64,000 bases of DNA from Pyrinomonadaceae bacterium (GTDB lineage: Bacteria; Acidobacteriota; Blastocatellia; Pyrinomonadales; Pyrinomonadaceae): positions 9,030 through 73,029 of the forward strand of contig JANNJZ010000418.1 of assembly GCA_031396065.1 (NCBI GenBank), given 5' to 3'. The notes below the pieces were generated by a model, which saw only the letters and a list, made by a program, of their open reading frames with translations, made no database searches and was not told the DNA's origin. The position numbers and the translations under genes were made by a program. Positions within the stretch are counted from its first letter, which is position 1, and the number at the start of each line of letters is the position of its first letter. Below, one piece after another: positions 3,076 through 17,667 of the stretch.

Positions 3076-4110
3076 TTGGAGGAATTTTTCGCGGCCGATA
3101 CTCGCAGATCGAGACTCTATGACCCGCAAATTGTAGCACGGCTCAGTCGGTTCGAGCCTGCTCGGGCAATAGGTGCGCGATCCTTTGGGAGCTCGGAATA
3201 CGTTGATGAGTTCGGTGATAAAACGATGACTCAGATTTCGCCTCGCATGGTTGAGAATTATCTGGTGGAATTGCTGCAAACCAAAACGCGGATTGACCGA
3301 CCCTATTCGCCGGTAACCGTGCGTCGGCATTACAACATGCTTAATCAACTCTTCAACATGGCAATTCGCGAGCGCATCACTAACGATAATCCGTGTCGTT
3401 CGGTGAGTCGCACCGTGCTGAAGAATTTACCCACATGGCAAAACCGTGATCGATGGCTGAACAAATACTCACCGGACGAAGAAGGACGGCTTTTTGTCGC
3501 GTTTGGAGAGCACGGCCAGCATGTAGCGGCCATTTGCCGCATCGTTTTGAACACTGGCATCAGGCCACCCAAGGAGGTATTGGCAATAAGGAAGGATCAC
3601 GTCAATCTTTCGGACGACCAGCGCTACTGCAAGGTCGAAAGAACGGACGTGTTGATTCCGCCTCGGGCGATCCTCGTGGCCAAGGGGAAGAATGGTCGGC
3701 CGCGAGCTTTGCCGCTCAATCGCACAGTACAAAGGGTCGTTGCGGTTCTCGCCACGGATTCGACGACGGAGGGTTGGTTATTTATTTGCGAACCGTGACG
3801 ATGAACCAATCAAAGCAATAAAGACCGGATTCACCAAGGCTTGTACTCTAGAGCCGGAATCGAAGACCTGCGGCCTTACGACCTCCGTCACACATTCGCC
3901 ACCCGGCTCTTGGAGCGAGGCGTGCACTCCTTCATCATTTCGGCACTGTTGGGGCATTCGACTCCGACGGCTGGATTTGGTGTCGGATCGCGAATTACTT
4001 CGGGCTACGCGCACGCTACCTGGGGTGCAATGCCGTGTCGAGGCCGTCCCGGGTCACCTCGTATTGCGCGTAATCGTTTTAAGACCGTAAACATTGACGA
4101 AGGCGGTTAG
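3076..4110 (+). pseudogene. Tyrosine recombinase (phage-type integrase), disrupted by two frameshifts and N-terminally short
   Basis: Frame 1 (3076-3798) reads ...VRRHYNMLNQLFNMAIRERITNDNPC...ICRIVLNTGIRPPKEVLAIRKDHVN... and ends GWLFICEP*. Frame 2 continues FANRDDEPIKAIKTGFTKAC. Frame 1 resumes near 3845 with SRAGIEDLRPYDLRHTFATRLLERGVHSFIISALLGHS...GYAH (the catalytic HxxR, H and Y region). The only start available is a TTG. Confidence 0.75.
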
Positions 4111-4187
4111 AGAAGTCACATTCACATGCATGAGTTGGATAAAGCACCCGCGCAGTCTGCCAAAAGTCTGCCAAAACTTTCGCCGCA
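4031..4187. repeat. Direct repeat copy 1 (integrase 3' end plus downstream); pairs with 15361-15506
   Basis: tgccgtgtcgaggccgtccc(-)gggtcacctcg ... gagaagtcac ... ataaagc...gtctgccaaaactttc(g)ccgca aligns with 15361-15506 in the same orientation, with substitutions and small indels. The first 14 nt are the reverse complement of a tRNA-Val anticodon stem-loop. Confidence 0.8.
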
Positions 4188-4264
4188 CCGATATGGCTCC
4201 AACGATCATCTGCTAAGAAGGCGGCAGGGAGGGTGCTATTATGACGGCCACGCAGCAGCAGCTA

Positions 4265-4350
4265 ATGACAAAAGCGATAGAAGCATCTACGAACATGGCA
4301 TCATCCGGCCTGTGAAACCGTTGGAGTTACCTGAAGGGTCTCGGCTTTGA
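4265..4350 (+). pseudogene. Frameshifted remnant of a small AF2212/DUF104-type antitoxin-like gene
   Basis: MTKAIEA in one frame, then IYEHGIIRPVKPLELPEGSRL in the next. The pattern IYENGxxxPxxPxxLPEG is typical of that family. No partner toxin gene is present. Confidence 0.35.
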
Positions 4351-4426
4351 CGTAATCGTAATGATGCACGAGAAACCTCGCACAAACCGGAACGCTGCCA
4401 GCATACGGAATTCTATACTTTCGCTG

Positions 4427-4879
4427 TCAGCTCGCGGTGACGCCTTCTGACAATCGGGCGTATTCAGCGTAGAGATCCTTGAGGTTGTTGTTCAACTCTG
4501 TAAAGATTTCAGGTCTGATGTTTTCAGGTGGAGTTTGATTCAGAACTTTCAGCAAAGCGGAAATTACTCGCGAAACCTCACCGGACATGCCAACTGACTT
4601 CGGGCCATTGTCGCGAATCAAACTCGCCAGCGGATCCAAAACCGCCAGGCGTCTGATGGCCTGACTATCAGGTTGTTCTAGTAGTGCTGCTGCGATTAGA
4701 TCTTCGCTCCACCCTTGGCTCGTCGCTGCGTTGACAATGTAGTTCATGAGGTCGGTATCAGGGACACAATCAAGAATTCTCTTGTCGAGGCGCGTCTTCA
4801 GCATCCTTTCAAGGCTTAGCTTATCAAACGCCTGCAGCATTGCTTCGGTAAGTTTGTTGGAATCGCTTGCGGCAGTCAT
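4427..4879 (-). CDS. Adaptor-domain (EAD-like) protein, 150 aa; last gene of the NTPase/protease operon
   Basis: The N-terminal ~80 aa (LKTRLDKRILD...IVNAATSQGWSEDLIAAALLEQPDS) is paralogous to the N-termini of the 353-aa and 371-aa ORFs. Its start overlaps the upstream stop (ATGA at 4876-4879). Confidence 0.8.
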   Translation of the reverse strand: MTAASDSNKLTEAMLQAFDKLSLERMLKTRLDKRILDCVPDTDLMNYIVNAATSQGWSEDLIAAALLEQPDSQAIRRLAVLDPLASLIRDNGPKSVGMSGEVSRVISALLKVLNQTPPENIRPEIFTELNNNLKDLYAEYARLSEGVTAS

Positions 4880-7230
4880 GGCATAACTCCAGTAGCTTGC
4901 AGGTTCAGGTCTTTCCTCAGCTCGATCAATGTCTCCGGTTGTGCATTAAGCTCTTGCACGGCTAGCGCAAGCGCCAGGTAGGTTTTACCAGTGATGCCCG
5001 CTGCTATGTTCTCCGTGTGATAAACAGAAAAGTGACTTTGCATTGTTACGAGGGCAGCAATTAGTGCCTCTCGTTCAGTAACCAATAAAGGACTATTAGC
5101 GGTTCGCTCTGCTCGTTGCCGCAAAACGTTTAAGGCGCTCATGGGTTGTTTCAGTACAATTAGGTCATTGGCACGCAGCCTGGCGTGAGTCTCCCAGTCT
5201 TCCAGTTCCGCCTCTTGCCAAACTGACTCGTCAACCTCCAAGCCAAGTTTGGCAGCCAGATATGCCTTGGCCTTCGGCGGCAACTCTTCTATGGCGCTCC
5301 CGAGATTTTGTTGCACAGCGTCCAGCCAGCGGCTTTCGAGAGTGGCGCGCTCGACTCCCAGCGAAAGGCGGTGGTAGATCTCCTCAGCGCGCGAGACGCC
5401 GTCTTCGAACGTCTGGTAATACTCCACAGCATTGTGATGAATCTGTTCCACCTTCTCGCGCTTGTCGTTGCGCAACGGCTCCAGCATCACTTTGCGCAAA
5501 TCTGTGCGGTGAATCAAAGCGTTGTCACCGGCTTGTGATACCAGTGCCACTTCCTTGCCCAGTTCCTCAAAGAGCTCTCTAGCTCGGTTGATGTCCGGAA
5601 CTTCGACCTCGCAGGGGCCTGCCAGTACCTTAAGGATTAACTCCGGAGTAATACGACGCAGTACCAAACCCGGATGGGCCAACTTAGCCACATCCGGTTC
5701 ATGTATGTGCTCAAGAATTCTTGTGAACAACTGGACCTGAATGGCGCCGTCGTCGAGTTTCTTCAAAAGTCGATCTTTGGTCTTTAGGTTCTTAATTCCT
5801 TTGGCTCCCGCTCCCTCGCGCCGCAAAAGTTCGACAGCCAACTTTAGCGTAAGCGGACTACCCCCCACCTGGGTTGCAACCAGCTTGGCGAGCTCGGGAT
5901 CCGTTATGCCATGCGACTCGAGAAAACCCTGAGCAATCTCCGCGTCAAACACCGAGATCTGAAGTCCTTCGGTTTTAAACCTTTTCGACTCTATTGGCGC
6001 CCGTCCGGACAATACCGCTCGCAGTGTCGGTATGCGCTTCTGCAACGACTCGAGAAACTCGAAGAGTTCATCAACGAAAGCACTACTCCGGTACTGCACT
6101 TCCTCAAACGTATCGAGAATAAGCAAGAGTGGTTTGTCCCCTAAGACCAGCCCCTTCGCCTCCTCCGCGAATTCGTCCAGAAACAAGTCGCGTTTATCGA
6201 CGCGTGCAGGTGCGTCCACGGTGCCGCCAGGTTGTCTTTTGCGCGCAGTCCGATTTTCGATTCGCTGGTTCCAGGAATCGCGTAAGTGTTTCAACGACTT
6301 AGCCGAGCTGGGAAACTGCACCTCCATTTGCCGGAGCGCTTCAATCAACAACGTAATTGGCTCTTCCGCAATCAGCGAAGGACGATCAAAATCCAGGTAT
6401 GCAAAGGGAAACCGGTTTGGGTCAGCGTCCTGATCCTGACTCGCCGGCTCGGCGAGATTCCCGGCTGGCAACATCAACATCACGTGATCAAGAATGAACT
6501 TAGCTAACAAAGTGGACTTTCCCACTCCGCCGGGCCCATGTAGCACCAGCGGGGGTTTGTCATTCCAACTGAAAATCTGGCGCAGGCCGCGGGTGACGAA
6601 ACTCGAAACGCTGGTTGCCTCCATCGCGCCAACGTATTCCGACAATTTATTGAGTTCCGTCGTGCGTCCTCTGAAATGATCGCCCACCAGGAAGCGAAAA
6701 GACGACAGCAAATTCTCGACTTCGATTCGCTGCAACACGAACTGCGGTTCCGGCACCCCAGTGATAATGCCATTCAACCACTCCGACACCTGCAGGGTTC
6801 GCAGCAGATCCTGATGGCTCTGTTTTTCTAACGGCTCCGCAGTTTGAAAGATGTACCCCTCAAGAGTCTTTTGTAAGGGATCCTGAGGACGATCGGAAAT
6901 ACTCAGCAAGACCTTCCTGATGTTATCAGCGCCCTCCAAACGCTCCAGTGCCTCTCGGCGCGCATCACTGCGAAGCATCCAGCGCGGACGCTGATTCTCA
7001 TCAAGAATTAACTGGCTGTCTGAATAAAGACTTTCGAGCGCAGTTTCCGGGCTAGCCTCCGCCCCATCGAATGGTTGGATTTTCTGCATCTCAAAGGAGG
7101 AGACAACTGAGGCGGCTTTAAGATAACTCCAGCGCACGTCAGACTCGTTGAGTTCAACACCCAGCAAGTCCTTCAGTTTCGAGGCAAGCAAATCGTTCGA
7201 ATAGCCTGAGGGAAAATCCGGATCCGACAT
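4876..7230 (-). CDS. STAND-type P-loop NTPase with a helical-repeat C-terminal half
   Basis: Walker A is PPLVLHGPGGVGKSTLLAKF (DNA ~6509-6541) and Walker B is KPLLLILDTFEEV. The C-terminus is ~350 aa and helical (TPR-like by eye). The product is 784 aa. Confidence 0.85.
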   Translation of the reverse strand: MSDPDFPSGYSNDLLASKLKDLLGVELNESDVRWSYLKAASVVSSFEMQKIQPFDGAEASPETALESLYSDSQLILDENQRPRWMLRSDARREALERLEGADNIRKVLLSISDRPQDPLQKTLEGYIFQTAEPLEKQSHQDLLRTLQVSEWLNGIITGVPEPQFVLQRIEVENLLSSFRFLVGDHFRGRTTELNKLSEYVGAMEATSVSSFVTRGLRQIFSWNDKPPLVLHGPGGVGKSTLLAKFILDHVMLMLPAGNLAEPASQDQDADPNRFPFAYLDFDRPSLIAEEPITLLIEALRQMEVQFPSSAKSLKHLRDSWNQRIENRTARKRQPGGTVDAPARVDKRDLFLDEFAEEAKGLVLGDKPLLLILDTFEEVQYRSSAFVDELFEFLESLQKRIPTLRAVLSGRAPIESKRFKTEGLQISVFDAEIAQGFLESHGITDPELAKLVATQVGGSPLTLKLAVELLRREGAGAKGIKNLKTKDRLLKKLDDGAIQVQLFTRILEHIHEPDVAKLAHPGLVLRRITPELILKVLAGPCEVEVPDINRARELFEELGKEVALVSQAGDNALIHRTDLRKVMLEPLRNDKREKVEQIHHNAVEYYQTFEDGVSRAEEIYHRLSLGVERATLESRWLDAVQQNLGSAIEELPPKAKAYLAAKLGLEVDESVWQEAELEDWETHARLRANDLIVLKQPMSALNVLRQRAERTANSPLLVTEREALIAALVTMQSHFSVYHTENIAAGITGKTYLALALAVQELNAQPETLIELRKDLNLQATGVMP

Positions 7231-7239
7231 AAGACTCTC

Positions 7240-8301
7240 CTAAACAAAAAGCAGTTTCGCTGTTTCGTTCACGGCTTTGCTGACCAGTCGTAGTCGCTCG
7301 ACTGTAATCTCGGGCTTGCCGGCGATCGCGCCATCAACCTCGGCCAGGATTATGTCAACTTTACCGGTCAAGTCTGTGGCGCTGTAATTTCGTTTGTGAT
7401 CTTTATTCAACTGCTCAAAGAAATCGATCAACTCATCGCGGCCGATTGGCTTGATCTCCTCTCGACTCACGTAGTCGCTGATCTGAAATGGCAACGTTTC
7501 CTGGTAGTTAAGCAGCACCACGCGACACTGCGGAACGTTGGTCTCAGCTTGAACTGCCAATTCGTCAATCCAATCTCGCGTTTCCGGGAGGAGAGTCTTT
7601 TCGCGAAAGCCGTCAAAGACGAACCAATAGGTTGTATCTCCGGGATTGACCACGCGAGCCAGTATCCAACTAACCAGACGCTGCACCCATCTCGCTTTCT
7701 GTTCATCCTGCTGCTGAGGAATCTTACTGGTATCCATTCCCATTTGCAGTCCGATCATTTCAGTAAGGTTGGGAGCTTCGAAAACAAACTTATCAAGGTT
7801 CATGTAGATAGTTTTGTTTCTCGGCGTCTTCTCGCTGAGAAAACTTATCAACTCGTTGGTGTAAGACTTGCCGCTAACCCGCTGGCCGGTAACCACGAGG
7901 ACGCGCGGGCCGTCCGGTGACCGCAGGTCTTTCAAGGCCTGACGCAAGTCTTTGCGATCGATGAAATATCTTCGCGCTCGCAACGTGTGCGCCATGACCA
8001 AGTCAACCAGAGTAGGTGGTCCTGGCGCCGGATCGAAATCCGGATGTTTTGCTACGAATGCCTTCAGGTTAACCCCGCTTGGATTCCGATCGATCGCATG
8101 GTAGACAAGATACGCAATCCATCCTTCCTCGATGCCTCGTTGCACGACGATTTCCACCACATCTGGATAGCCAATACCCTGTGGATTGATGATGTTTGCC
8201 AGTTTCTTATCGAGCTGGTTCAGCAGCAGACTAGTAAGAGTAGGAAGCGAGTAGTCATTGCTCAGCGCAAACAGGAAATCATTTCGTTGCTGCAAATCCA
8301 T
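7240..8301 (-). CDS. Adaptor (EAD-like) domain fused to a small P-loop NTPase
   Basis: The N-terminus reads LLLNQLDKKLANI...VVQRGIEEGWIAYLVYHAIDRNPSGVNLKAF. It is followed by Walker A VLVVTGQRVSGKSYT and a Walker B-like TYWFVFDGF. Confidence 0.8.
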   Translation of the reverse strand: MDLQQRNDFLFALSNDYSLPTLTSLLLNQLDKKLANIINPQGIGYPDVVEIVVQRGIEEGWIAYLVYHAIDRNPSGVNLKAFVAKHPDFDPAPGPPTLVDLVMAHTLRARRYFIDRKDLRQALKDLRSPDGPRVLVVTGQRVSGKSYTNELISFLSEKTPRNKTIYMNLDKFVFEAPNLTEMIGLQMGMDTSKIPQQQDEQKARWVQRLVSWILARVVNPGDTTYWFVFDGFREKTLLPETRDWIDELAVQAETNVPQCRVVLLNYQETLPFQISDYVSREEIKPIGRDELIDFFEQLNKDHKRNYSATDLTGKVDIILAEVDGAIAGKPEITVERLRLVSKAVNETAKLLFV

Positions 8302-8454
8302 ATTGACCTCCCGGGGGGCGGGTTAAGAATTATCAACCAATCAGTTTCTCGTCATTAGTCCAGGAACATGAACCGAATATGGCGGCCCGGCAGCCCCTTC
8401 AGCTCGCCGCGCTGGGTACTCGATTCGCGTTACGTCGTTCATGGCTCGCGCCAA

Positions 8455-9570
8455 CTAGTCGTCCGGATCAGCAAGTTTTGCCGCCACGTTTCGCTCCTGG
8501 AACAGCTTCATGATGGCGGTCATCGGAACGCCTTCGTTGTAGGTTGGCTTGTGGGCCGGATCAAAGTCGGGATCGCCGCTGTGATGCAGCGCAGCCAGTT
8601 CCCATTTAAAGGTAAAGCAAGGTGAACCCGAGGAACCTGACTCGGTATTAGTTTGGTAGCGCAAACGCGTTCCGTGGGTATTGGTGCTCATTACCCCATC
8701 AGTGTCCACCGCCAGTTTCATCGGCTGACCACGCGGGTGTTGCAAGATGCTCATGCCTGAACCCTCTGCCGGAATAAAGGGCATCTGCGGCAACGGAATA
8801 AAGCCACGCTTTTCGCCCGCCAAACTGTCCTTGTCCCCAACTGTGTCCTTTCCCGCCGGCGCCGCGAGCCGGATCAAAGCGTAATCCAAACGATCTGCGG
8901 GTGCTTCTTGATCCAACGGATAATTCTCGCTGGCATCAATCAGCCAATCAGTCGCCAGTGAATAAGTGACACCGTCGTTAAGAACGGCACCGCCACTGGT
9001 TCGTTTGTAATCGAACCGGCAGAGCACATTTTCCCGTTTAGCAAGATCGCCATCCGGCATCGTTTTAATTACGGGTTCCATGACGTGATAGTTAGTCATT
9101 ACCACGCTCGGTCCGCCAAACAGAAAGCCCGTACCGGTGATGCTCCTACCACGCTCGGTGCCATACTCGATACGGCATATTTGCGCTTCGAGTTTGCCCA
9201 ATTCCGTGCGCCAAACATTGACGTCCAACATTGGATTCTGCGGCGTGATCATCCGCTCTAGCTCCTGACGATCAACCGTCTTGTCGATGGAGCTAAGCCC
9301 AAACTGCTGAGAGAAAGCCAGGAGGTTGGCGTTACCAGGATTCACTTCGCGCGCTTTTAACACGAGCGCATCCCACCAACCCTCCATATTGGCTCTCTGG
9401 ATGACCGCCGAAACCGTCTCTTGGTAGGTTGCACCCATCGGAGCGAGGTTAAACACCTGCTTGTCAAGCCGATGCAGCAGCAATAATCCGAACGTTCCGG
9501 GAGCAAAAGCTGCGGTCAGAACGTCTGTCAATTTTCCGATTTGTGGCCCGTTGAGCTGCTTTGTCGCCAT
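8455..9570 (-). CDS. Adaptor (EAD-like) domain fused to a trypsin-like serine protease
   Basis: The N-terminus reads LLLHRLDKQVFNL...VIQRANMEGWWDALVLKAREVNPGNANLLAF. The protease triad context is VVMTNYHVM (His), DYALIRLA (Asp) and ESGSSGSPCF (Ser). Confidence 0.85.
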   Translation of the reverse strand: MATKQLNGPQIGKLTDVLTAAFAPGTFGLLLLHRLDKQVFNLAPMGATYQETVSAVIQRANMEGWWDALVLKAREVNPGNANLLAFSQQFGLSSIDKTVDRQELERMITPQNPMLDVNVWRTELGKLEAQICRIEYGTERGRSITGTGFLFGGPSVVMTNYHVMEPVIKTMPDGDLAKRENVLCRFDYKRTSGGAVLNDGVTYSLATDWLIDASENYPLDQEAPADRLDYALIRLAAPAGKDTVGDKDSLAGEKRGFIPLPQMPFIPAEGSGMSILQHPRGQPMKLAVDTDGVMSTNTHGTRLRYQTNTESGSSGSPCFTFKWELAALHHSGDPDFDPAHKPTYNEGVPMTAIMKLFQERNVAAKLADPDD

Positions 9571-9572
9571 GG

Positions 9573-10250
9573 TTACCCCTGTGGTTTCTTATATTGCGTC
9601 CCGATGAACTTTTTATCAGTCTCCGACAGATGGCGGTTCCAGCCAACTTCCATCTTTCCGTCGGTCAACTCCTTGGGTATGGGGTACAGCATGATCGATT
9701 CTTTGTCGAATTCTGAAAACTGCGACTGATCCAGTTCATACTTCCGAAAAAGATTTTGATCCACGCGCGCTTTGTTCCAGCCACGGTCGGCGTAGTACCG
9801 ATACACGGCATCCTTGTTCCAGGGAATGTTGCCGGCGGGGTTCTGATGTTCATGGATGCAACCTATCGCGTGACCAAACTCATGGACGATAACGCGAGCA
9901 AATTCCTCTTCATCCGAATCCTCGGTTAACCAACCATAGTTCATCGTCGCACTGCCAGGCGGAAAAAAGCCGAGGTTGAGAGCGTCGGTGCCCACGGCGG
10001 ACCAGGAAGTGTTATCCATCTTGAACGCCACGCGAACCTCAGCACCGGGATCGTCCACAAAATCAAAGAAAATGTTTGCGTGGGGTTCCCACATCCGAGC
10101 ATATTCTTTCACCTTCTCCTGCAGGAATGAGTCGCCCCCGAGAAAGTGTACCCGCAGGCGTTTTCCGTTACTCCACATATTAGTCATTGCCAGCTCTTCT
10201 CCAGAATCTGGCAGTATCACATCCATGCAAACTCTTGGTTCGTCGCTCAT
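9573..10250 (-). CDS. Astacin-like (M12A-type) zinc metalloprotease, no signal peptide seen
   Basis: VIVHEFGHAIGCIHEHQ (the HExxHxxGxxHE signature, DNA ~9845-9892) plus a Met-turn-like SIMLYP. It lies 2 bp upstream of the next gene. Confidence 0.8.
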   Translation of the reverse strand: MSDEPRVCMDVILPDSGEELAMTNMWSNGKRLRVHFLGGDSFLQEKVKEYARMWEPHANIFFDFVDDPGAEVRVAFKMDNTSWSAVGTDALNLGFFPPGSATMNYGWLTEDSDEEEFARVIVHEFGHAIGCIHEHQNPAGNIPWNKDAVYRYYADRGWNKARVDQNLFRKYELDQSQFSEFDKESIMLYPIPKELTDGKMEVGWNRHLSETDKKFIGTQYKKPQG

Positions 10251-10275
10251 TGGTTAGTCTCCTTCAGTTTGTCAA

Positions 10276-11211
10276 TTAAGATTCGTTCTTACTGTGAGGC
10301 CGATGAAGGCGCTCGACCGGCAACTTGTCCGCGTCGATCAAGTCAGTTGAGTCAGTCGTGGCCGGTCGGGTTTTTAGTTCACTCAGATTTCGCGGAGCCG
10401 GTATGTCAGCCATCGATTCGTCGTATAGGTCAAACCACGGCAGTCCGAATTCGGCATACGTTGCTGCGCTAACCGGAGTAGTCGGTGGCTCAAGATCACA
10501 GATAGCGCGATACTGTTCACTGTTGAGCAGGTAAACAGAAACGGTCTCATGATTTTGCTGGTCCCAGACAACGATACCGTAAGGGTCGCTGTATATCTTT
10601 TGCTTAATTCGACCTCCGGCGTCTAAGCCCATTTCAACCCAGGTATCAGACCCGTACTGAATTTCCGCTGGGGAAGCTGGTGGAGGTTCGTCCGGAAACT
10701 TCCCGCGTTTGGGCTCATAGACCACAAGCTGGAGGCCACCCGTTTCCTCCCTCCCGGTAATTTGACCTTCAACAGTTTTTAGCTCCCCGAGTGGCGTCGC
10801 AATGAATTGTCTAACGAAGTTCGCTCCGGCATTGATTCCGTCGAGCCATGGTTGATCTGGGCACACCAAATAGTCTTGCGGATCAGAGTTCAACCCTTCT
10901 TCCCAAACCGTTCCGGAAACAGCATTCACGCCGCCGACCGCTACTTTCACCGCATTGGGCTTCCAATCCTCTCCTCCAAAGCCGAGCCATATTGCCTCTC
11001 GTTGGTAAACGGGAAGAAAGAACGCTGCGTTGTGACGCCATTTCGCGGGAACTCTCTCAGCAAAATCGTCCACGCGGTGAACGTTGAAAGGCCCAAGCGA
11101 CGGCGGCAGCGGATAGTGCTGTCCGTCTTCGGGAATTCGCAGAGTTCGCTGAAGCGAAACCGAAAACCGGTCTCCAACGTAAATGCGCGTTCCATCGGTT
11201 CGGACCAACAT
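10276..11211 (-). CDS. Conserved protein of unknown function (311 aa)
   Basis: Long ORF in the operon. I moved the start from the TTG at 11229 to the ATG at 11211, which has GGAG 7 nt upstream. The sequence (SLQRTLRIPEDGQHYPLPPSLGPF...VKVAVGGVNAVSG...PWLDGI...RQFIATPLG) contains no motif I can assign. Confidence 0.7.
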   Translation of the reverse strand: MLVRTDGTRIYVGDRFSVSLQRTLRIPEDGQHYPLPPSLGPFNVHRVDDFAERVPAKWRHNAAFFLPVYQREAIWLGFGGEDWKPNAVKVAVGGVNAVSGTVWEEGLNSDPQDYLVCPDQPWLDGINAGANFVRQFIATPLGELKTVEGQITGREETGGLQLVVYEPKRGKFPDEPPPASPAEIQYGSDTWVEMGLDAGGRIKQKIYSDPYGIVVWDQQNHETVSVYLLNSEQYRAICDLEPPTTPVSAATYAEFGLPWFDLYDESMADIPAPRNLSELKTRPATTDSTDLIDADKLPVERLHRPHSKNES

Positions 11212-11624
11212 TGTTACTCCAGAAAGCAAGCGCCTAGAAACGCTAAATCAAGCCGCAGAGATTCGGGTCGAGTGAAGAGCACCTGGAGCCCTCGTACTAT
11301 CTGTTATGTATGACCTTATATCCGGAAGCGTTTCACGGCTGGAAGTTCCATGAAGAAGCGCTACCGCGCTTGTCAACGGAAACAGCGGTCCTTGGCAGTT
11401 TTCCAGCAAGTGCGAGGCGCAGGCTCGTGAAGAATCCTTAGAGAGACGGTGCGGACGATAAGTCGAATGACAACCAAAAGTCAACAGCTTCTCGTTACAA
11501 GGTGCAGAGCCTTGCGAGAGTTGGGGATTCAAATGACCCCGGCCTATTCGGCGCAGGCACGAGGTTCAATTTTTACCGTCGATCAGGGCGAGGAGTCAGG
11601 TGAGTTGTCAAACTCAAAAGCTAA

Positions 11625-14396
11625 TCAACTCTCACCAAGTAATTCTGCGACTGAGACGCGCCGAAAGCCGACCGGCGTTTCCTCGCCTGGCGAGGCCAAT
11701 CGCATCCCGCCCACCAACTCGTCCACTTCTTGAGTCGCGAGGGTGTTCCAGTCAAACAGAAATATTTTTTCAAAGTAGGCAGCAACTTCAGGATCCCGAA
11801 CCAACAAACTTGCATCGCGATTGAACAAACTACCCTGGTTAGTAAGATTGTGACTTCCAAGCAGCACTTCCTTTCCATCCACGATGATGCCCTTGGTGTG
11901 ACACCTCATTTGAACTCGAATGGCATCGGTGTCGAATCCGAAGTCTTTTAGCCGCTCAAGCAGCTTTTGCTGCGAAGGCCCATTGCTGGCGCCAAACTCT
12001 CTTGCATCCCGGAAGATAACCCGCACATCAACTCCAGACTGTTGCTTATCGCGGAGCAGGCCGAAGAACTCGACGAACTCATCGTTGTTGTTCTCTTCGT
12101 CAAGCAAGTTGAACGATTGGTTCTCAACGTAGATTTTCCGCGTACCTTTCCTCATTATCTTAAGCGCGTGGTCAATGAAAAGACGGCGACCATGCGAGTC
12201 ACGATCAGGCGTCAGCAACGGTTGAATCTCAAACTCTCGATCGCGAATCAAGGGATCGAAGTACTGTGCATGAGCTGCCTTCTCAAGCCCTTCCATGAAA
12301 GCGGCTTCCGGGACAAAGACATCAGGAAACACTGCTTCCAGGCCCTCTTCAAGAGGTACGCGCTCAGCTTCGCGAAAATCAAATTCAATGAACTTCTGGA
12401 ACATCGTGGCCAGCTTTCGGTTCGCAATGACCGCATGCCATTCGCGATTATGTTTTTTGAGGGGTCCGATCTGCGTTGAGTGGGTGCCAGCCGGATCGAT
12501 GTTCGCCTGGTTGGAATCTTTCCAATTTCCGCTGGACATCCACAACTCTTCACCGTCTCGCGAGGCGACCTTGATATGGTATGCAGATGGAATCAGTTTC
12601 CCTTTCCCAACCGAGGCCCAGGCGTGTTTGAACTTAGTTCCGATGCGGTGCTTCATGTCGTCAACGGCTTCCTGGGTTCCCTTTTTCTGGGTCACCATCC
12701 GCAGTGTCTTGTTGTTCCCCTGCATCGCTTGCGCGATAGCATCACTGATGTGATTCGGATCCCACTCGTACATCGTTGCAGTCAAATGCTCGTTAACGCG
12801 ACTAAGGAAGTCTCTTAGATTCGGAAACCCCGAGTCGGGACTAACGTGAAAGACTACTCTCATTTGCTCTTTAACGGGCTCGAGGAACACGTTGGTTGGT
12901 TCCCGATATTTGCCGGGACGCGCCGGCGCCTCAAGCACCGAGAGATCGACGCCCAGGGATTCGAGTTGGTCACGTAATGCCGACGTGCGCACATCAACTC
13001 CGACTCCCAGAATCTGAGGCGGAATCGCCGATTTACCTTCCGCAGAAAGCTCAGCAGTAGTTAACTTCTTTCGAGTCTCGATTACGACCACTCGCTCATC
13101 AGTGATCCAGCCTCGCTTAAATCGGTAACCAAGCCGGATCTCGATCACATTAGGATCGTTACCATAAGCTTCACGAGCTGCCTGAAGCGCCCTTTCGTGG
13201 GCATCTCCGCTCGTAACGGTTCCGCTTGGGCCCACCGTCGTAGTCGGCAAGGAAATGGGAGTTGCGGCGCCAACTTTCACCGTCACCTCAATCGGAATAT
13301 TCAATTGAAAAGTGTAGGAACTTGCTGTCGCGGGTAGCAGTGTTGGCGGCGAGGTCGGCAAGCTCGTACCAGGTTGATTTCCGGGGCCTACACTTACTTC
13401 GCCCTGTTGCACGCGTCGCAGTAGTTCGCGCACTTTTGGTGCTGGGACCGCAAAGTTAGCTTGCATAAACAGCCCGGAGAAGTGAAGGCCTACAGCTTTT
13501 CCCGATCCCAGATCGATAGCTGGAGAACCGGAATTGCCTCCTAGCGTCGAGCAATCATGCTGCAATTCGTCTTCGGAAACAGAGATGATCTGGCCTGGAG
13601 CGAGGCGTTTCTTGTCGTAAACATCGCCAAAGATTCTCAGCACCAGATCTTGATCGGGGACACGCGAGTCGCGAGCGGGGTAACCGATAGTGGCAACAAG
13701 CTCGTCACCACTGACGGCGTCAGCCAATTCAATTGGAAGCGGCAACGGCCTTCCGGTGACAGGTTTGCTCAATCGCAGAAAGGCTACGTCGGGCTCACTC
13801 GATGATGCGATAAAAAGTATGGAGTTGACCGCGTATTCAAGACTGTCCGCGCGTTGATCCTCCTCCAGAAAATCGACACGCGACGTCATCGCGCCATTCA
13901 CTCCCGCACGAAACGTAAATCCGTTCACGCCGCGCCGCCCGAACTCCTGCGCGACATGGCGGTTTGTGACGATGATGTCGTCAGCGACGAGCCAACCGGT
14001 TCCAAGCCAGGGGAAGTCCGGATGATTGGTTACTTCGACGCGGCCAATTGCTGGAATGACTCGATCCAAAATGGGCTTTGCCGTTTGAATTCGCGCTCTC
14101 CAGACTTCACTATCCGGGCCGAGAAACTCAGTGGTGGCCTGGTTGTCCCGAATGGTTAAGACTGGTCGTGCCAGAGGACGAACTATAGTTTCTAAAGTGA
14201 ACCGTTCTGTCAGTTCCGCTACACCTGGTTCACTCACAGAGGGCAATGCCGCAGCGACGCTAATCTCTTCGGCCAACGCGTCGACCGACTCCTGAGCGGG
14301 CAATTTTACCTTTTTCTGCAGCTCCTCATAGAGTGCGAGGTCCTGTTGTGCAAATTGCCGCATTACCTCATCAAGTTGTTGTTGATTGACTGGCAT
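11625..14396 (-). CDS. Trypsin-like serine protease fused to a two-HKD phospholipase-D-superfamily domain (923 aa)
   Basis: The protease shows IIVTNRHVAQEF (His), PDVAFLRL (Asp) and STLGGNSGSPAID (Ser, DNA ~13519-13550). HKD-1 is YHIKVASRD...SSGNW (DNA 12555-12578) and HKD-2 is CHTKGIIVDGKEVLLGSHNLT (DNA 11877-11900). Confidence 0.85.
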   Translation of the reverse strand: MPVNQQQLDEVMRQFAQQDLALYEELQKKVKLPAQESVDALAEEISVAAALPSVSEPGVAELTERFTLETIVRPLARPVLTIRDNQATTEFLGPDSEVWRARIQTAKPILDRVIPAIGRVEVTNHPDFPWLGTGWLVADDIIVTNRHVAQEFGRRGVNGFTFRAGVNGAMTSRVDFLEEDQRADSLEYAVNSILFIASSSEPDVAFLRLSKPVTGRPLPLPIELADAVSGDELVATIGYPARDSRVPDQDLVLRIFGDVYDKKRLAPGQIISVSEDELQHDCSTLGGNSGSPAIDLGSGKAVGLHFSGLFMQANFAVPAPKVRELLRRVQQGEVSVGPGNQPGTSLPTSPPTLLPATASSYTFQLNIPIEVTVKVGAATPISLPTTTVGPSGTVTSGDAHERALQAAREAYGNDPNVIEIRLGYRFKRGWITDERVVVIETRKKLTTAELSAEGKSAIPPQILGVGVDVRTSALRDQLESLGVDLSVLEAPARPGKYREPTNVFLEPVKEQMRVVFHVSPDSGFPNLRDFLSRVNEHLTATMYEWDPNHISDAIAQAMQGNNKTLRMVTQKKGTQEAVDDMKHRIGTKFKHAWASVGKGKLIPSAYHIKVASRDGEELWMSSGNWKDSNQANIDPAGTHSTQIGPLKKHNREWHAVIANRKLATMFQKFIEFDFREAERVPLEEGLEAVFPDVFVPEAAFMEGLEKAAHAQYFDPLIRDREFEIQPLLTPDRDSHGRRLFIDHALKIMRKGTRKIYVENQSFNLLDEENNNDEFVEFFGLLRDKQQSGVDVRVIFRDAREFGASNGPSQQKLLERLKDFGFDTDAIRVQMRCHTKGIIVDGKEVLLGSHNLTNQGSLFNRDASLLVRDPEVAAYFEKIFLFDWNTLATQEVDELVGGMRLASPGEETPVGFRRVSVAELLGES

Positions 14397-15087
14397 AATT
14401 TATCTCCTGAGTTGAGAGGGATTCAGCAAGGAATCTGATCCCGACGTAATCACTGGTCGGATTGCTTCAAGACGCTTTTCTTACTAACTGGCCGACGAAA
14501 ACGGCCGGGGTTCTCGGATCCACGAGTTTTCTCCTCGCTTGAACGGTCGCCGGCGCTTCTAGAACGAATCTTTGTCGCTGGGCTTCTGGAACGAGCCTTT
14601 AATGAACAGGTCTTTAATGTCTTATGACGAACCGCGGGTTTTCGTTTCAGTGTCTGGCTGCAAGGCAAGGACTATGCTGCCTCCACGCCAAGGTCCGGGC
14701 GGCAGATATCATCGATTGTTAAGTAATTCGAAGGAATTACAAACAAGCCTGCGAGTTTGGTAGGTAGCGACGGCAGTATTATTACGACCGTCGACTTGGA
14801 TCGAGGGACCCTTTTGAGATCTTCCGACTACGTGGCCAACAAATTCCGAGTTTGTTCTGCCACGAGAACCAACCATGAGATGGTCAGCGCGATCGCAAGG
14901 CACTCCCCCTCTCGGTAAGGTCTAACCGCTGCTTCTGAACGTAGGTACGAGAAGCCTCGCTTTCGTTGCTCCGGAATATCGTTAGCCAAGGCGAAAAGAG
15001 TGTGAGAAATGAGGGCGGAAAACGGGCAGTGGCTAAGTGGAGCGTTCTGGAGCAATGGAAAAGCGAGGTTATACAGCGTAACTTGTT

Positions 15088-15255
15088 GAGAATTCTCATC
15101 AGCCAACCAGGTTGCGAGAGCGGGTGATGCGAAAGTTCAAGTCAGCGGGACACGCGCAACGTTTCCCCTCGGCCGTCGGAGTCATTACCCCGCACTTCCG
15201 AGTGGGACGTCATCGGCACAGAGCTAATGGATATAGAGAGGTGATGACGACCTGA
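15088..15255 (+). mobile_element. C-terminal remnant of an IS6-family DDE transposase
   Basis: ENSHQPTRLRERVMRKFKSAGHAQRFPSAVGVITPHFRVGRHRHRANGYRE matches the NRAENSHQPTRRRERxMxRFKSxxxAQRFLSxH...F...RH tail of one IS6 subgroup. An in-frame stop lies immediately upstream and no N-terminal part is present. Confidence 0.6.
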
Positions 15256-15326
15256 TTTTGAGAGGCTGCCAAACTGTGTCATGAACGATGAAGGGGGACA
15301 AGAGTAACGAAATAACCCAATAAAAA

Positions 15327-15374
15327 TGGTAGGCGCGTGGGGACTTGAACCCCAGACCTCTGCCGTGTCGAGGC
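15327..15374 (-). pseudogene. tRNA-Val 3' fragment (anticodon loop to CCA)
   Basis: The reverse complement is GCCTCGACACGGCAGAGGTCTGGGGTTCAAGTCCCCACGCGCCTACCA. This covers the anticodon loop TCGACAC (GAC), the T arm TGGGG/TTCAAGT/CCCCA, the acceptor 3' strand and CCA. The sequence upstream of it cannot form a D arm or an acceptor 5' strand. Confidence 0.75.
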
Positions 15375-15506
15375 CGTCCCTGGGTCACCTCGGACAGCGC
15401 GCAATCTTTGCTCACGCGTTGAATATTAACCAAAGAGGCTTGAGAAGTCACTCAACACTGCACGGATTGAATAAAGCGTAAGCGTAGTCTGCCAAAACTT
15501 TCCGCA
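15361..15506. repeat. Direct repeat copy 2 (pairs with 4031-4187)
   Basis: See 4031-4187. Here the repeat abuts the tRNA-Val 3' fragment instead of an integrase body. Confidence 0.8.
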
Positions 15507-15530
15507 TGGGGAGACGGAGCTATTAGCCTT

Positions 15531-15854
15531 CTACGCAGGCATGCCGTGTTCGACCGTTTCAGCTCGTCGCACTTTGATCTTCACTTCGACTCGTGACCCG
15601 AGCCGGTTGATGATCGACATCAGGCGATCGACGGTGAACCGCCCAAGATCGGCGTTGCGGATGCGCGAGAAGTCCGCTGCCGCAATCCCAGTGCGGCCCT
15701 GCGCGCCGCGAACGCTAAGCCCGTCACGGTCGAGCGCTTTGATGATCTCGGCGGCCAGAATTGCCTTGAACTGATCGGCATCGGCATTCTTGTGTCCCAG
15801 GTCGCGAAAAACATTTCCGCTTCCCTTCACTACGTCCAGCTTTTCGCTTTTCAT
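15531..15854 (-). CDS. XRE-family HTH antitoxin (HigA-like)
   Basis: GSGNVFRDLG...QFKAILAAEIIKALDRDGLSVRGAQGRTGIAAADFSRIRNADLGRFTVDRLMSIINRLG fits the antitoxin that pairs with Gp49/HigB-type toxins. It overlaps the upstream toxin gene by 4 bp. Confidence 0.8.
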   Translation of the reverse strand: MKSEKLDVVKGSGNVFRDLGHKNADADQFKAILAAEIIKALDRDGLSVRGAQGRTGIAAADFSRIRNADLGRFTVDRLMSIINRLGSRVEVKIKVRRAETVEHGMPA

Positions 15855-16198
15855 CGCAACATCTCCTTCAGCCTTTTCATACGGTCCTTGACCAGATCGC
15901 TTTCAGCTTTGGGTGTCTTGATGCCCCGCGTAGATTTCTTCTGAAAGACATGGACAACCCAAATGTCTTCACCGAGCTGCACCGCATAGACCACGCGGAA
16001 CGCGTCACCGCGAAACGGTAAAGCAATCTCGAACACGCCCGAGCCTAAACCCCGCATCGGCTTCGCAATGTCGGCCTTACCGCCCTCTGCGGCAATCGTC
16101 AAGGCGGTAAGACAAGTTGACCGCACCCCATCTGGGAAAGTCTCGAATTCCCTGAGTGCCGCTTTGATCCACGAAACGGGCCGCGTGCGTCTGATCAT
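15851..16198 (-). CDS. Gp49/HigB-like (RelE/ParE superfamily) toxin
   Basis: WIKAALREFETFPDGVR...KPMRGLGSGVFEIALPFRGDAFRVVYAVQLGEDIWVVHVFQKKSTRGIKTPKAE is the typical DUF891/Gp49 pattern. The toxin-first gene order also fits. Confidence 0.8.
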   Translation of the reverse strand: MIRRTRPVSWIKAALREFETFPDGVRSTCLTALTIAAEGGKADIAKPMRGLGSGVFEIALPFRGDAFRVVYAVQLGEDIWVVHVFQKKSTRGIKTPKAESDLVKDRMKRLKEMLR

Positions 16199-16249
16199 TT
16201 GCCTCCCCGTTCATCGCTCCGCGATCTCGTCTCGGATCTTGCCCTGCCA

Positions 16250-16269
16250 TGTTGTCACATATGACAACA
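16250..16269. promoter_or_regulatory. Perfect 20-bp palindrome, probable TA operator
   Basis: TGTTGTCACATATGACAACA lies ~52 bp upstream of the toxin start codon (16198, minus strand). Confidence 0.5.
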
Positions 16270-16370
16270 CACGTCAATTGTGAGGGAAGTAGTCTTTTCT
16301 GCTAATTTGCGCTCGCGAGTCCGTCCCTCTCGGAGCGCGTCTAAGAGAGCTCCTTATAGAAGAGCGTAGG

Positions 16371-16976: not shown

Positions 16977-16991
16977 GTTTGGACCACGGTC

Positions 16992-17528: not shown

Positions 17529-17667
17529 TGCAAATAAGAGGGCGTAATCTGCACCACTGCAAGCACGATTGCAGGTTAATCAGGCCGAACGTTTCATTGT
17601 TCACGGTGACTATGAGGTACCCGAAGCTGCCGTCGGATCATTTCGGCGTCGCGATTTCCGACCTGAG

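Follow-up and report, generated by a model that had tools for sequence, protein, structure and literature searches.

The genes described here lie in a row at 14396-4427 on the minus strand of the window, by which we mean the whole 64-kb stretch of DNA analysed. The features are as follows, with the domains of a protein listed beneath it.

4427..4879, minus strand: 150-aa stand-alone EAD1 protein (Pfam EAD1, 39.5 bits)
~4622-4858, minus strand: its EAD1 (residues ~8-86)
~4439-4615, minus strand: its conserved C-terminal tail (residues 89-147)
4876..7230, minus strand: 784-aa STAND/NLR-like ATPase (weak AAA_16, NB-ARC, NACHT and NPHP3_N matches, plus motifs)
7240..8301, minus strand: 353-aa protein, EAD1 plus small AAA+/STAND-type NTPase (Pfam EAD1, 20.8 bits; orthologues with PF19955)
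8032-8301, minus strand: its EAD1 (residues 1-90)
8455..9570, minus strand: 371-aa protein, EAD1 plus trypsin-like serine protease (Pfam EAD1, 47.3 bits; Trypsin_2, 45.6 bits)
9289-9570, minus strand: its EAD1 (residues 1-94)
9573..10250, minus strand: 225-aa astacin/matrixin-like zinc metallopeptidase (HEFGHAIGCIHEH), accessory (weak Pfam Astacin and Peptidase_M10)
10276..11229, minus strand: 317-aa protein of a large conserved family (2599 relatives); 311 aa if the ATG at 11211 is used
11625..14396, minus strand: 923-aa trypsin-like protease fused to a two-HKD PLD-type nuclease/phospholipase (Pfam Trypsin_2, PLDc_2)

The cassette is flanked by a broken integrase on one side and a toxin-antitoxin pair on the other, and a tail-sheath-like gene lies 6 kb from it. 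PADLOC (2023), run on the locus, recognised neither an EAD1 gene nor the STAND protein.

An all-helical N-terminal domain of ~90 residues is common to the 150-aa, 353-aa and 371-aa proteins (4427-9570, minus strand). The first-pass annotation had proposed such a domain on three chassis from peptide strings that are all present in minus-strand ORFs 4427-4879, 7240-8301 and 8455-9570, and had placed it at 4640-4879, 8032-8301 and 9286-9570, ranges that do cover it. The proposal holds: the similarity seen with Pfam and pairwise BLASTP goes far beyond chance. The profile matches identify the domain as Effector-associated domain 1 (EAD1; Pfam PF19955), a bacterial adaptor domain catalogued previously. 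The Pfam model matches residues 5-90 of the 371-aa protein (E=3e-12) and residues 8-79 of the 150-aa protein (E=7.7e-10). Its match to residues 4-86 of the 353-aa protein (E=5.5e-4) lies below the gathering score of 24.2 bits and spans 84 of the 90 profile positions; a PF19955 match is precomputed for most orthologues of this protein, one of which NCBI names 'effector-associated domain EAD1-containing protein'. In pairwise BLASTP, the 353-aa and 371-aa proteins align at E=2e-13 (40% identity) and the 150-aa and 371-aa proteins at E=2e-6. The 150-aa and 353-aa proteins reach E=0.31, and this pair is therefore linked through the EAD1 family alone.

With a 40-segment EAD1 profile, E values for the three copies ranged from 1e-21 to 5e-28; these are partly circular because the copies are themselves in the profile. 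The profile found no fourth copy in any window ORF of at least 50 aa. An earlier seed profile gave no match to the 784-aa, 923-aa, 317-aa or 225-aa proteins, and the first-pass annotation was thus also correct in stating that neither the STAND protein nor the 923-aa effector carries EAD1. EAD1s of the NTPase and trypsin classes are 29.8% identical within one locus and 24.0% identical between loci, and each of the three EAD1 classes is an old paralogue. The three segments are paralogous EAD1 copies.

AlphaFold2 predicts six helices for residues 1-100 of the 371-aa protein (pLDDT 91.1), and the same pattern recurs in an independent model of the 353-aa protein. In Foldseek, the top PDB matches of the EAD1 model were the bacterial death-like domain 8srz (TM 0.51/0.56), the CARD-CARD disk 5wvc and the CARD 9frr; no death-fold match in the PDB was significant (E 2.2 or worse; TM 0.51-0.56), and no sequence match was found between the EAD1 profile and solved CARD-like domains. 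EAD1 is likely a non-catalytic six-helix bundle, ~90 residues long and death-fold-like in shape, whose role is to couple proteins to one another.

The catalytic motifs of the 371-aa protease are TNYHV (His, 159) and GSSGSP (Ser, 312). The NTPase domain of the 353-aa protein (~113-353) has a Walker A motif, GQRVSGKS, at 139-146 and WFVFDG at 226-231; a HPDFDP motif just behind EAD1 is conserved in its family. The AlphaFold2 model of this protein (pLDDT 80.6, with the linker at 98-112 after EAD1 below 50) matches 2qen, ORC/Cdc6, the Dark apoptosome and CED-4 in Foldseek (E=2e-5 to 1e-3). The 784-aa STAND P-loop NTPase combines Walker A GPGGVGKS (K238) and Walker B LLILDT (D373) with C-terminal helical repeats. 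Its unannotated N-terminal domain (~1-215) is conserved in essentially all 119 homologues; a Pfam search of residues 1-202 gave no match, and hhalign of EAD1 against this domain returned 4% probability.

At least 402 STAND relatives occur in species-representative genomes. More distant single-chain relatives end in EAD1+tail, EAD1+trypsin or EAD1+NTPase, one for each EAD1 protein of the window, and we searched the 120 best STAND homologues for Rosetta-stone fusions of this kind. One, P0017, is STAND+EAD1+tail. A further 26 are STAND+EAD1+trypsin fusions whose match to the 371-aa protein extends past EAD1 (E down to 1e-67), in most cases over nearly the full length of that protein; it aligns end to end with the C-termini of P0024 (E=2e-51) and P0108 (E=1e-67). 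A C-terminal P-loop module like the 353-aa protein is found in 5-6 of the 120, exemplified by the second P-loop of P0026 (E=6e-14), and Pfam EAD1 is on record for three of these (P0026, P0036, P0046). In these fusions EAD1 connects all three chassis to a STAND. The domain can also be internal in STAND relatives, between the STAND repeats and trypsin or even within the NTPase domain, and the effectors borne by these relatives vary (TIR, SIR2, patatin, FGE-sulfatase).

The start of the 150-aa gene overlaps the STAND stop codon (ATGA; junction CCATGACTG), and its tail can be aligned to the C-terminal 62 residues of four fused relatives, P0017, P0020, P0022 and P0023. The gene is kept behind the STAND gene in L002, L004, L005 and L007, and this split form is conserved at STAND identities of 57-87% in L002, L004 and L005 and 76% in L007. 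A free-standing EAD1 gene is rare among related loci, and the split EAD1+tail form accounts for ~8 sequence clusters among 1.84 billion representatives. The fusion alignments identify the 150-aa protein as the C-terminal EAD1+tail of the STAND itself, detached as a separate, translationally coupled gene. How the STAND joins the complex, left open in the first-pass annotation, is therefore largely answered.

We surveyed 80 species-level genome loci with STAND relatives, in which the trypsin, small NTPase and STAND gene set is recurrent. A separate 353-like NTPase gene is present in 79 of the 80 and a 371-like trypsin in 73; the EAD1-tagged forms occur in 40 (trypsin) and 33 (NTPase). EAD1 is fused to the STAND in 16/80. 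In 28/80 loci the partners bear EAD1 tags and the STAND has none, either fused to it or encoded next to it. Docking in general can therefore not depend on pairing of a STAND EAD1 with a partner EAD1. The nearest relatives of the cassette are in Pyrinomonadaceae (Acidobacteriota), and the sister locus L006 and the P0023 contig keep the order EAD1-trypsin, EAD1-NTPase, STAND bearing its own EAD1.

The metallopeptidase is kept in L002, L004 and L007 and lies near 7/80 related STAND loci. The 317-aa protein had no match in Pfam, NCBIfam, PADLOC or PDB; elsewhere its family adjoins trypsin and PLD genes (contexts L087 and L089-L091). The 923-aa protein (TNRHV His at 144, GNSGSP Ser at 287, HIK at 607, HTK at 833) is the probable terminal effector. 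The trypsin domain of this protein shares 44% identity (E=2e-56) with a trypsin+NucA protein adjoining the sister cassette in L004, and an equivalent Trypsin_2+Endonuclease_NS gene adjoins the P0023 cassette. A 395-bp gap separates the gene from the rest of the row, and L002 and L005 lack it, so that it counts only as a probable member of the system.

EAD1 was defined as a homotypic coupling adaptor and likened to Death/CARD domains (Kaur et al., 2020, eLife, PMC7159879; 2021, eLife, PMC8195603). The window copies match the same curated profile, are likewise small, helical, non-catalytic and terminal, and likewise occur several to an operon on a trypsin protease and NTPases; the adaptor-coupling reading restates this published principle and is not new. 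By the rule of Kaur, Burroughs, Iyer & Aravind, one EAD copy is fused to a core component. The core STAND here departs from it, apparently because its copy split off with the C-terminal tail as the 150-aa gene. The mostly alphaproteobacterial 'NucA-trypsin' conflict system (System 3 of Kaur et al., 2020, PMC7159879) shares a trypsin-nuclease fusion, an EAD1-tagged second trypsin paralogue and further EAD1 proteins, and in some cases also a STAND NTPase. As in that system, a true Trypsin+Endonuclease_NS gene is present in L004 and on the P0023 contig, whereas the nuclease here is a two-HKD PLD domain rather than NucA. The 'NucA-trypsin' STAND has an N-terminal death-like domain plus trypsin, unlike the different, unannotated N-terminal domain of the window STAND.

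By architecture, the row parallels the experimentally studied CARD-NLR anti-phage systems (the Lysobacter enzymogenes gasdermin system and the Pedobacter and Azospirillum variants), where defence requires the CARD-like domains of the trypsin proteases and the C-terminal CARD-like domain of the NLR has an autoinhibitory role (Wein et al., 2023). Common elements are a trypsin-like protease with an N-terminal death-fold-like domain of ~90 residues, a STAND/NLR-like ATPase that starts with an unannotated helical domain and ends in repeats (to which the 784-aa protein is likened by architecture), and nuclease or phospholipase effectors, often trypsin-fused. In contrast, EAD1 has no detectable sequence similarity to solved CARD-like domains, only a weak fold match; the window system has no gasdermin, includes an extra EAD1-tagged small AAA+ NTPase and has the NLR C-terminal adaptor as a separate gene. 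LypABC of Caulobacter crescentus, required for the lysis that releases gene transfer agents (Banks et al., 2026), offers a further likeness of architecture. The 784-aa protein (K238, D373) has its architectural counterpart in LypB, whose 771 aa comprise an N-terminal domain, an Orc1-like AAA+ domain with K230 and D335, and TPR-like repeats. The 923-aa protein likewise resembles LypC (trypsin+endonuclease), and LypA (CARD, trypsin, ATPase-like domain) is built from the kinds of module seen in the 371-aa and 353-aa proteins. LypA holds protease and ATPase-like domain in one chain with one CARD, whereas the window has two proteins, each with its own EAD1, an intact Walker A in the 353-aa NTPase, unlike LypA's ATPase-like domain, and a free adaptor-only protein that LypABC lacks. 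With the Apaf-1/caspase-9 and CED-4/CED-3 apoptosomes the row shares a STAND ATPase scaffold and a helical adaptor on a protease, and the 353-aa model aligns with Dark and CED-4; the protease here is trypsin-fold rather than caspase-fold, the sensor's adaptor is C-terminal or detached, and the adaptors resemble EAD1 weakly in fold, with no further evidence of common descent. A small adaptor-only protein recalls CARD-only regulators (ICEBERG, phage pCARD), which modulate recruitment.

The row is best read as an EAD1-coupled STAND/trypsin conflict system with split genes, of the class that Kaur et al. named 'NucA-trypsin', a reading to which we give, together with the coupling role of EAD1, a probability of roughly 0.7. 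From the observed domain homology, family identity, fusion/fission relations and conserved gene order, we infer the interactions and their sequence. The 784-aa STAND would sense an invader signal via its repeats and oligomerise on ATP, and the EAD1s of the 371-aa protease and 353-aa NTPase would dock onto the assembled STAND at its N-terminal domain, its own EAD1 or both, the STAND's own EAD1 and C-terminal tail being, in this lineage, the putatively detached, translationally coupled 150-aa protein. Clustering would activate the protease and switch on downstream killers, namely the 923-aa trypsin-PLD and perhaps the 317-aa protein and the metallopeptidase, resulting in abortive infection or cell lysis. 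The homotypic, death-fold/CARD-like coupling proposed earlier gains support from the EAD principle, the Rosetta-stone fusions and the top, non-significant, death-fold matches; its purely homotypic part is not established.

Several alternatives bear on this reading. Chance or compositional likeness of helical N-termini, with no common origin, could draw on the non-significant 150-aa/353-aa pair (E=0.31), but this candidate was refuted by the curated Pfam matches (E=3e-12 and 7.7e-10), the 353-aa/371-aa alignment (E=2e-13) and the class-wise EAD1 comparison; the same helix pattern in independent models of two copies and the retention of EAD1 across dozens of loci leave it a negligible probability. 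Docking could instead be heterotypic only, with each EAD1 binding the STAND N-terminal domain and the 150-aa protein acting as a competing host-encoded decoy, CARD-only-like. Two-hybrid assays detect binding of the LypA CARD to the LypB N-terminal domain, whose removal abolishes function, EAD1 partners occur without a STAND EAD1 in the 28 loci noted above, and the STAND N-terminal domain is nearly universally conserved; moreover, the Lysobacter system becomes toxic when its NLR loses the C-terminal CARD-like domain, and it is inhibited by a CARD-only protein from a phage. Fused EAD1 on 16/80 STAND relatives, the LypA CARD self-interaction predicted by AlphaFold3 and the greater likeness of same-locus than cross-locus copies, as expected for domains in mutual contact, argue the other way. 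We regard this alternative as possible but doubtful; it overlaps the best explanation and does not exclude it.

The remaining alternatives concern what the domain or the cassette is for. That the cassette drives regulated lysis or programmed death on behalf of a mobile element or of development, rather than acting against phage, is suggested by LypABC, its closest studied architectural analogue, and by the flanking integrase remnant, toxin-antitoxin pair and tail-sheath-like gene, yet we consider it unlikely given the phage protection conferred by the related systems of Lysobacter and Pedobacter, the enrichment of such operons beside defence genes and the variable effectors of STAND relatives, which are typical of defence. 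More improbable still is EAD1 as a removable pro-domain or protease-recognition tag, whereby trypsin would cut the linker to release and activate the chassis with no scaffold. The low-confidence linker and conserved HPDFDP motif behind EAD1 in the 353-aa protein, and the proteolytic cascades proposed for such systems by Kaur et al. (PMC7159879), fit this idea, but EAD1 is well folded in the model and conserved as three old paralogue classes, internal copies cannot serve as pro-peptides, and no cleavage site was identified.

What is new in the EAD1-coupled reading are the single-chain STAND fusions matching each EAD1 protein of the window, the identification of the 150-aa protein as a probable detached part of the STAND, the recurrent gene set, the top though non-significant death-fold matches of the EAD1 model, and the architectural parallel with the CARD-NLR and LypABC systems. 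The cassette would thus represent a modest gene-fission twist on a known class of protease-plus-sensor immune systems.

Seven genes lie in a tight row on the minus strand, running from 14396 to 4427 in the open reading frame map of the window.

Genes of the minus-strand row and their predicted products
11625-14396, minus strand: 923 aa, trypsin protease and a PLD domain with two HKD motifs (PLDc_2), from Pfam and motifs
10276-11229, minus strand: 317 aa, no library match
9573-10250, minus strand: 225 aa, astacin-like zinc metallopeptidase, HEFGHAIGCIHEH
8455-9570, minus strand: 371 aa, EAD1 and a trypsin-fold serine protease with His motif TNYHV and Ser motif GSSGSP
7240-8301, minus strand: 353 aa, EAD1, flexible linker and compact AAA+/STAND-type NTPase with Walker A GQRVSGKS
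4876-7230, minus strand: 784 aa, STAND ATPase with Walker A GPGGVGKS (K238) and Walker B LLILDT (D373)
4427-4879, minus strand: 150 aa, stand-alone EAD1 and conserved C-terminal tail

The first-pass annotation had proposed that one N-terminal domain is reused on three chassis. The peptide strings on which this rested were located in the 150-, 353- and 371-aa products, within the proposed DNA ranges, and the shared domain was borne out by BLASTP and by Pfam matches to effector-associated domain 1 (EAD1, PF19955; gathering score 24.2 bits). Residues 5-90 of the 371-aa protein match this family at 47.3 bits (E=3e-12) and residues 8-79 of the 150-aa protein at 39.5 bits (E=7.7e-10). Residues 4-86 of the 353-aa protein scored 20.8 bits (E=5.5e-4), under the gathering score, over 84 of the 90 profile positions. 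BLASTP aligned the 353- and 371-aa proteins at 40% identity (E=2e-13), and the 150-aa protein matched the 371-aa protein at E=2e-6 and the 353-aa protein at E=0.31. Among the 20 relatives listed for the 353-aa protein (19 full length, 42-92% identity), 16 have a precomputed PF19955 match, and one is named 'effector-associated domain EAD1-containing protein' by NCBI. The domain is small, all-alpha and devoid of catalytic motifs. A profile of 40 EAD1 segments found exactly three copies in the whole 64-kb window; they fall within 5.1 kb and are all N-terminal, one on a trypsin, one on an AAA+/STAND-type NTPase and one alone.

The STAND ATPase (the 784-aa NLR-like protein) and the 923-aa effector had been described as not visibly carrying this domain, and profile searches agreed: the EAD1 seed profile found no copy in the 784-, 923-, 317- or 225-aa proteins. 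A hidden EAD1 in the 784- or 923-aa protein was rejected after Pfam searches of N-terminal pieces to E=10 and a local EAD1 profile returned nothing. We likewise rejected EAD1 as the STAND N-terminal domain, given a 4% probability in an hhalign comparison with 119 aligned STAND N-termini. The N-terminal ~215 residues of the 784-aa protein gave no Pfam match (first 202 residues searched), and its C-terminal half is helical. PDB sequence searches with the 353-, 317- and 784-aa proteins and with a profile of the 353-aa family yielded nothing usable, and no PADLOC (2023) model matched the EAD1 genes or the STAND.

AlphaFold2, using a 40-sequence alignment, modelled residues 1-100 of the 371-aa protein with a pLDDT of 91.1 and a pTM of 0.82. 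This EAD1 model has six helices (8-21, 24-35, a short 39-42, 49-63, 66-76 and 81-89), and the same pattern recurs at the N-terminus of the AlphaFold2 model of the 353-aa protein (pLDDT 80.6). When the EAD1 model was compared with the PDB by Foldseek, the four best matches were all death-fold and none was significant (E=2.2-3.8, TM 0.51-0.56, rmsd 3.6-4.4 Å). They comprise 8srz, a bacterial death-like domain of Lysobacter enzymogenes (TM 0.51/0.56, rmsd 3.6 Å over 85 columns, E=2.2), 5wvc (the Apaf-1/caspase-9 CARD disk) and two chains of 9frr (CARD). Searched against PDB sequences, the 40-segment profile returned no death-fold chain and linked EAD1 to no solved structure. A sequence link to the CARD-like 8SRZ/8SS1, sought in the PDB with this profile, the 371-aa protein and an alphaproteobacterial EAD1-trypsin, was discarded. 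The N-terminal segments had no Death, CARD, PYD or DED match in Pfam at E of 0.1 or better, and their one match besides EAD1 was marginal (TetR_C_4 on the 353-aa protein, E=0.081). The viral structure library BFVD, in which we sought EAD1-like phage proteins, gave nothing significant; a viral MAVS-like CARD was among its weak matches. Death-like domains have been reported to show structural parallels to helical EADs, with profile-profile matches among some (Kaur et al., 2021, PMC8195603), and a death fold is plausible for EAD1.

The best PDB matches of the 353-aa model were the archaeal Walker ATPase 2qen, ORC/Cdc6, the Dark apoptosome protein and CED-4 (E=2e-5 to 1e-3). A low-confidence linker separates EAD1 from the NTPase across the 353-aa family, with pLDDT below 50 at residues 98-112, and a KHPDFDPAxGPP motif at residues ~86-112 (window 7960-8045, minus strand) is kept across the family. 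A hinge or a protease cleavage site may lie here.

Comparison with STAND relatives points to an origin for the 150-aa gene. A search with the 784-aa protein gave 276 relatives, and fusions were counted in the 120 best homologues. The closest sixteen matches, the window protein among them, share its short form (56-100% identity, 773-792 aa). At four related loci (L002, L004, L005 and L007), EAD1-NTPase and EAD1-trypsin genes precede the STAND, and a 147-149-aa EAD1 gene follows it and overlaps its stop codon. EAD1 is absent from the window STAND itself and present on the homologues P0017, P0020, P0022 and P0023. P0017 (934 aa, 51% identical) joins STAND, EAD1 (780-846) and tail in one chain. 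All four homologues end in a stretch that aligns with the final 60 residues of the 150-aa protein (…GEVSRVISALLKVL…LKDLYAEYARLS), including the three (P0020, P0022 and P0023) in which EAD1 lies inside the NTPase domain (residues ~315-415) and the tail remains C-terminal. Gene order is preserved at the P0017 (L006) and P0023 loci, with EAD1-trypsin first, EAD1-NTPase second and the EAD1-bearing STAND last. Because its tail and EAD1 match these single-chain relatives, we infer that the 150-aa gene is a fission product of the STAND, namely its own C-terminal EAD1 and tail, detached in one lineage. Its start codon lies over the STAND stop (ATGA), which suggests translational coupling of the two genes. 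Full-length proteins of the 150-aa type form about eight clusters only in an exhaustive search of 1.84 billion representatives.

The inserted EAD1 lies between Walker A and Walker B, an arrangement also seen in P0112 (418-511), and the window STAND has a low-complexity loop at the corresponding place. In P0022 and P0023 the insert ends in YPEFNPER, resembling the HPDFDP motif that follows EAD1 in the 353-aa family.

Other relatives fuse the STAND to the remaining parts. Chains of STAND, repeats, EAD1 and Trypsin_2 account for 26 of the 120 homologues (P0024, P0028 and P0035 among them). Similarity of their C-termini to the 371-aa protein reaches past EAD1 and in most of them covers almost the full 371-aa chain (E=2e-51 for P0024, E=1e-67 for P0108). 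In P0026, P0036 and P0046 the STAND is joined to EAD1 and to a second P-loop module, which resembles the 353-aa protein (E=6e-14). Further STAND relatives have FGE-sulfatase, patatin, TIR or SIR2 in place of the EAD1 modules. At one locus (L011 7833-12662), a stop-to-stop frame of 1610 residues contains STAND, EAD1, trypsin and a 353-like NTPase; it is an all-in-one counterpart of four window genes, with the trypsin-then-NTPase order of Caulobacter LypA.

Scanning one genome per species, we obtained at least 402 loci with a STAND relative and profiled the best 80. These come from Acidobacteriota, Myxococcota, Actinomycetota, Bacteroidota, Chloroflexota and Proteobacteria, and their source organisms include no LypABC host or Lysobacter. 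The closest locus of this species-level scan is from Pyrinomonadaceae (76% identity).

Gene arrangements at the best 80 STAND loci
Separate 353-like NTPase gene, usually directly upstream of the STAND: 79/80
Separate 371-like trypsin gene: 73/80
EAD1-trypsin gene: 40/80
EAD1-NTPase gene: 33/80
STAND with fused C-terminal EAD1: 16/80, 14 of them also with trypsin
EAD1-tagged partners with no EAD1 on or adjoining the STAND: 28/80
Free EAD1+tail gene: 1/80

By sequence, the EAD1 copies form old paralogue classes. For 42 of 47 trypsin, 22 of 35 NTPase, 12 of 19 STAND-fused and all 5 small copies, the nearest copy at a different locus is of the same class; NTPase and trypsin EAD1s are 29.8% identical within a locus versus 24.0% between loci. 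This somewhat greater likeness within a locus would be an indirect sign of homotypic contact between the copies. Some related loci hold further EAD1 proteins. Right after the sister cassette of L004, positions 12984-18085 encode a 418-aa EAD1 protein and a 1266-aa nSTAND1 + WD40 protein, which would be a second EAD1-coupled STAND system beside the first. An ORF at L033 3683-4609 consists of little besides three EAD1 copies, and the 150-aa query matches three to eight stretches in each of P0268, P0270 and P0283 (295-551 aa). Such apparent tandem-EAD1 proteins could be multivalent adaptor hubs.

The idea that one adaptor domain is reused across chassis, by a logic like that of death folds and CARDs, agrees with the published EAD principle, in which a core component and effectors each bear EAD copies and are coupled through homotypic contacts, and in which the Death/CARD analogy is explicit (Kaur et al., 2020, PMC7159879). 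The locus is a new, split-gene case of a kind of system already described, its adaptor concept being present in Pfam and in two eLife papers. In the 'NucA-trypsin' system, a trypsin-nuclease protein is accompanied by a trypsin paralogue that bears EAD1, by other EAD1 proteins and in some cases by a STAND (Kaur et al., 2020, PMC7159879). The window row fits that description save for the nuclease, which is PLDc_2 with no Endonuclease_NS. A Trypsin+Endonuclease_NS gene lies beside the sister cassette at L004 and beside that of the P0023 contig, and the trypsin domain of the 923-aa protein is 44% identical to that of the L004 protein. Given this trypsin identity and the PLDc_2 in place of Endonuclease_NS, the row is a nuclease-swapped variant.

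Experimentally studied CARD systems offer a second comparison. The Lysobacter gasdermin and Pedobacter systems need the CARD-like N-terminus of their trypsin-like proteases, and the partner NLR-like ATPase has a helical, unannotated N-terminal domain and a CARD-like domain at its C-terminus, loss of which is toxic unless the protease CARD is mutated too (Wein et al., 2023). The wider operon family comprises a CARD-protease, an ATPase with repeats and trypsin-fused effectors, and a phage CARD-only protein inhibits the Lysobacter gasdermin system (Wein et al., 2023). The window STAND resembles these ATPases in its intact Walker A and B motifs, unannotated N-terminal domain and C-terminal repeats. 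In Caulobacter, LypA consists of a CARD, a trypsin and a divergent ATPase domain, the 771-aa LypB of an N-terminal domain, an Orc1-like AAA+ module and TPR-like repeats, and LypC of a trypsin and an endonuclease; in two-hybrid assays the LypA CARD bound the LypB N-terminal domain (Banks et al., 2026). The 371-, 353-, 784- and 923-aa proteins reproduce the LypABC modules, and the 784-aa protein parallels LypB in architecture and length. The bioinformatic EAD1 family is tied to experimentally studied bacterial CARD-like domains only by architecture and a weak fold match, and on this basis the window cassette may be assigned, by analogy, to the CARD-NLR family.

The cassette is bordered by the following genes.

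Genes flanking the cassette
3076-4110, plus strand: tyrosine integrase, broken across frames, on one flank
15531-16198, minus strand: Gp49/HigB-like toxin and HTH_37 antitoxin, on the other flank
16371-16976, minus strand: truncated sigma-54 activator, lid and HTH parts only, on the same flank as the toxin-antitoxin pair

The broken integrase, toxin-antitoxin pair and activator fragment suggest insertion of a mobile or defence island. An integrase also adjoins the cassette in L005, and G+C content is 52.7% in the cassette versus 55.2% in the window. Promoter and terminator scans of 4000-15500 gave counts at chance level and no operon boundaries. An intact sigma-54 activator (18344-19738) lies farther out. 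The 828-aa product of the gene just past it (20346-22832, plus strand) has phage tail sheath domains, and a contractile injection system or tailocin cluster may begin there.

The 317-aa protein, which matched nothing in Pfam, NCBIfam, PADLOC or the PDB, has 2599 relatives; the best 120 are ~307-344 aa long and 51-85% identical, with cyanobacteria and Thermodesulfobacteriota among their sources. Elsewhere (e.g. L087 6001-6966 and L089 6001-6969), homologues adjoin genes for PLD and trypsin-like proteases, and neither EAD1 nor a STAND lies nearby. Since the family is widespread without EAD1 or STAND, we rejected its membership of the EAD1 system; a tie to the trypsin/PLD module is more likely, and the 317-aa protein may form such a module with the 923-aa trypsin-PLD protein. 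An astacin-like metallopeptidase stands beside 7 of the 80 related STAND cassettes (including L017, L023, L036, L075 and L084), and the 225-aa protein matches NCBIfam 'AbsR1' partially, at 99 bits, far under the 650-bit cut-off.

Taken together, we propose that the STAND would oligomerise upon sensing a trigger, and that the trypsin protease and the small NTPase would then join it through their EAD1 domains. The protease, activated by proximity, would in turn switch on the trypsin-PLD protein, and the 317-aa and metallopeptidase products may be further targets. Within this scheme the free EAD1+tail protein may be the detachable docking arm of the STAND or, following the Lysobacter precedent, a brake. 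The 28 of 80 loci whose STAND has no EAD1 argue that the mechanism involves, at least in part, docking on the N-terminal domain of the STAND, and such docking would match the LypA-LypB interaction. Tentatively, and with more doubt than confidence, the 150-aa protein can be pictured as a fission-born host 'adaptor-only' safety catch acting in trans, its tail on the STAND and its EAD1 occupying the EAD1 of the protease and NTPase until firing, with a stoichiometry set by coupling that tunes the death threshold. It would then be a bacterial counterpart of CARD-only proteins such as ICEBERG and phage pCARD.

What is new here is the fission/fusion map that accounts for STAND wiring, the near-universal 353-like NTPase partner and, as a candidate regulator, the rare adaptor-only protein. 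The locus is a naturally dissected NLR-like system, in which sensor, adaptor, protease and second NTPase are separate small proteins; relatives fuse the same parts into chains of 1100 to 1600 residues. The split parts would be convenient for biochemistry on EAD1 pairing, on binding by the sensor N-terminus and on whether the adaptor-only protein is a bridge or a brake.
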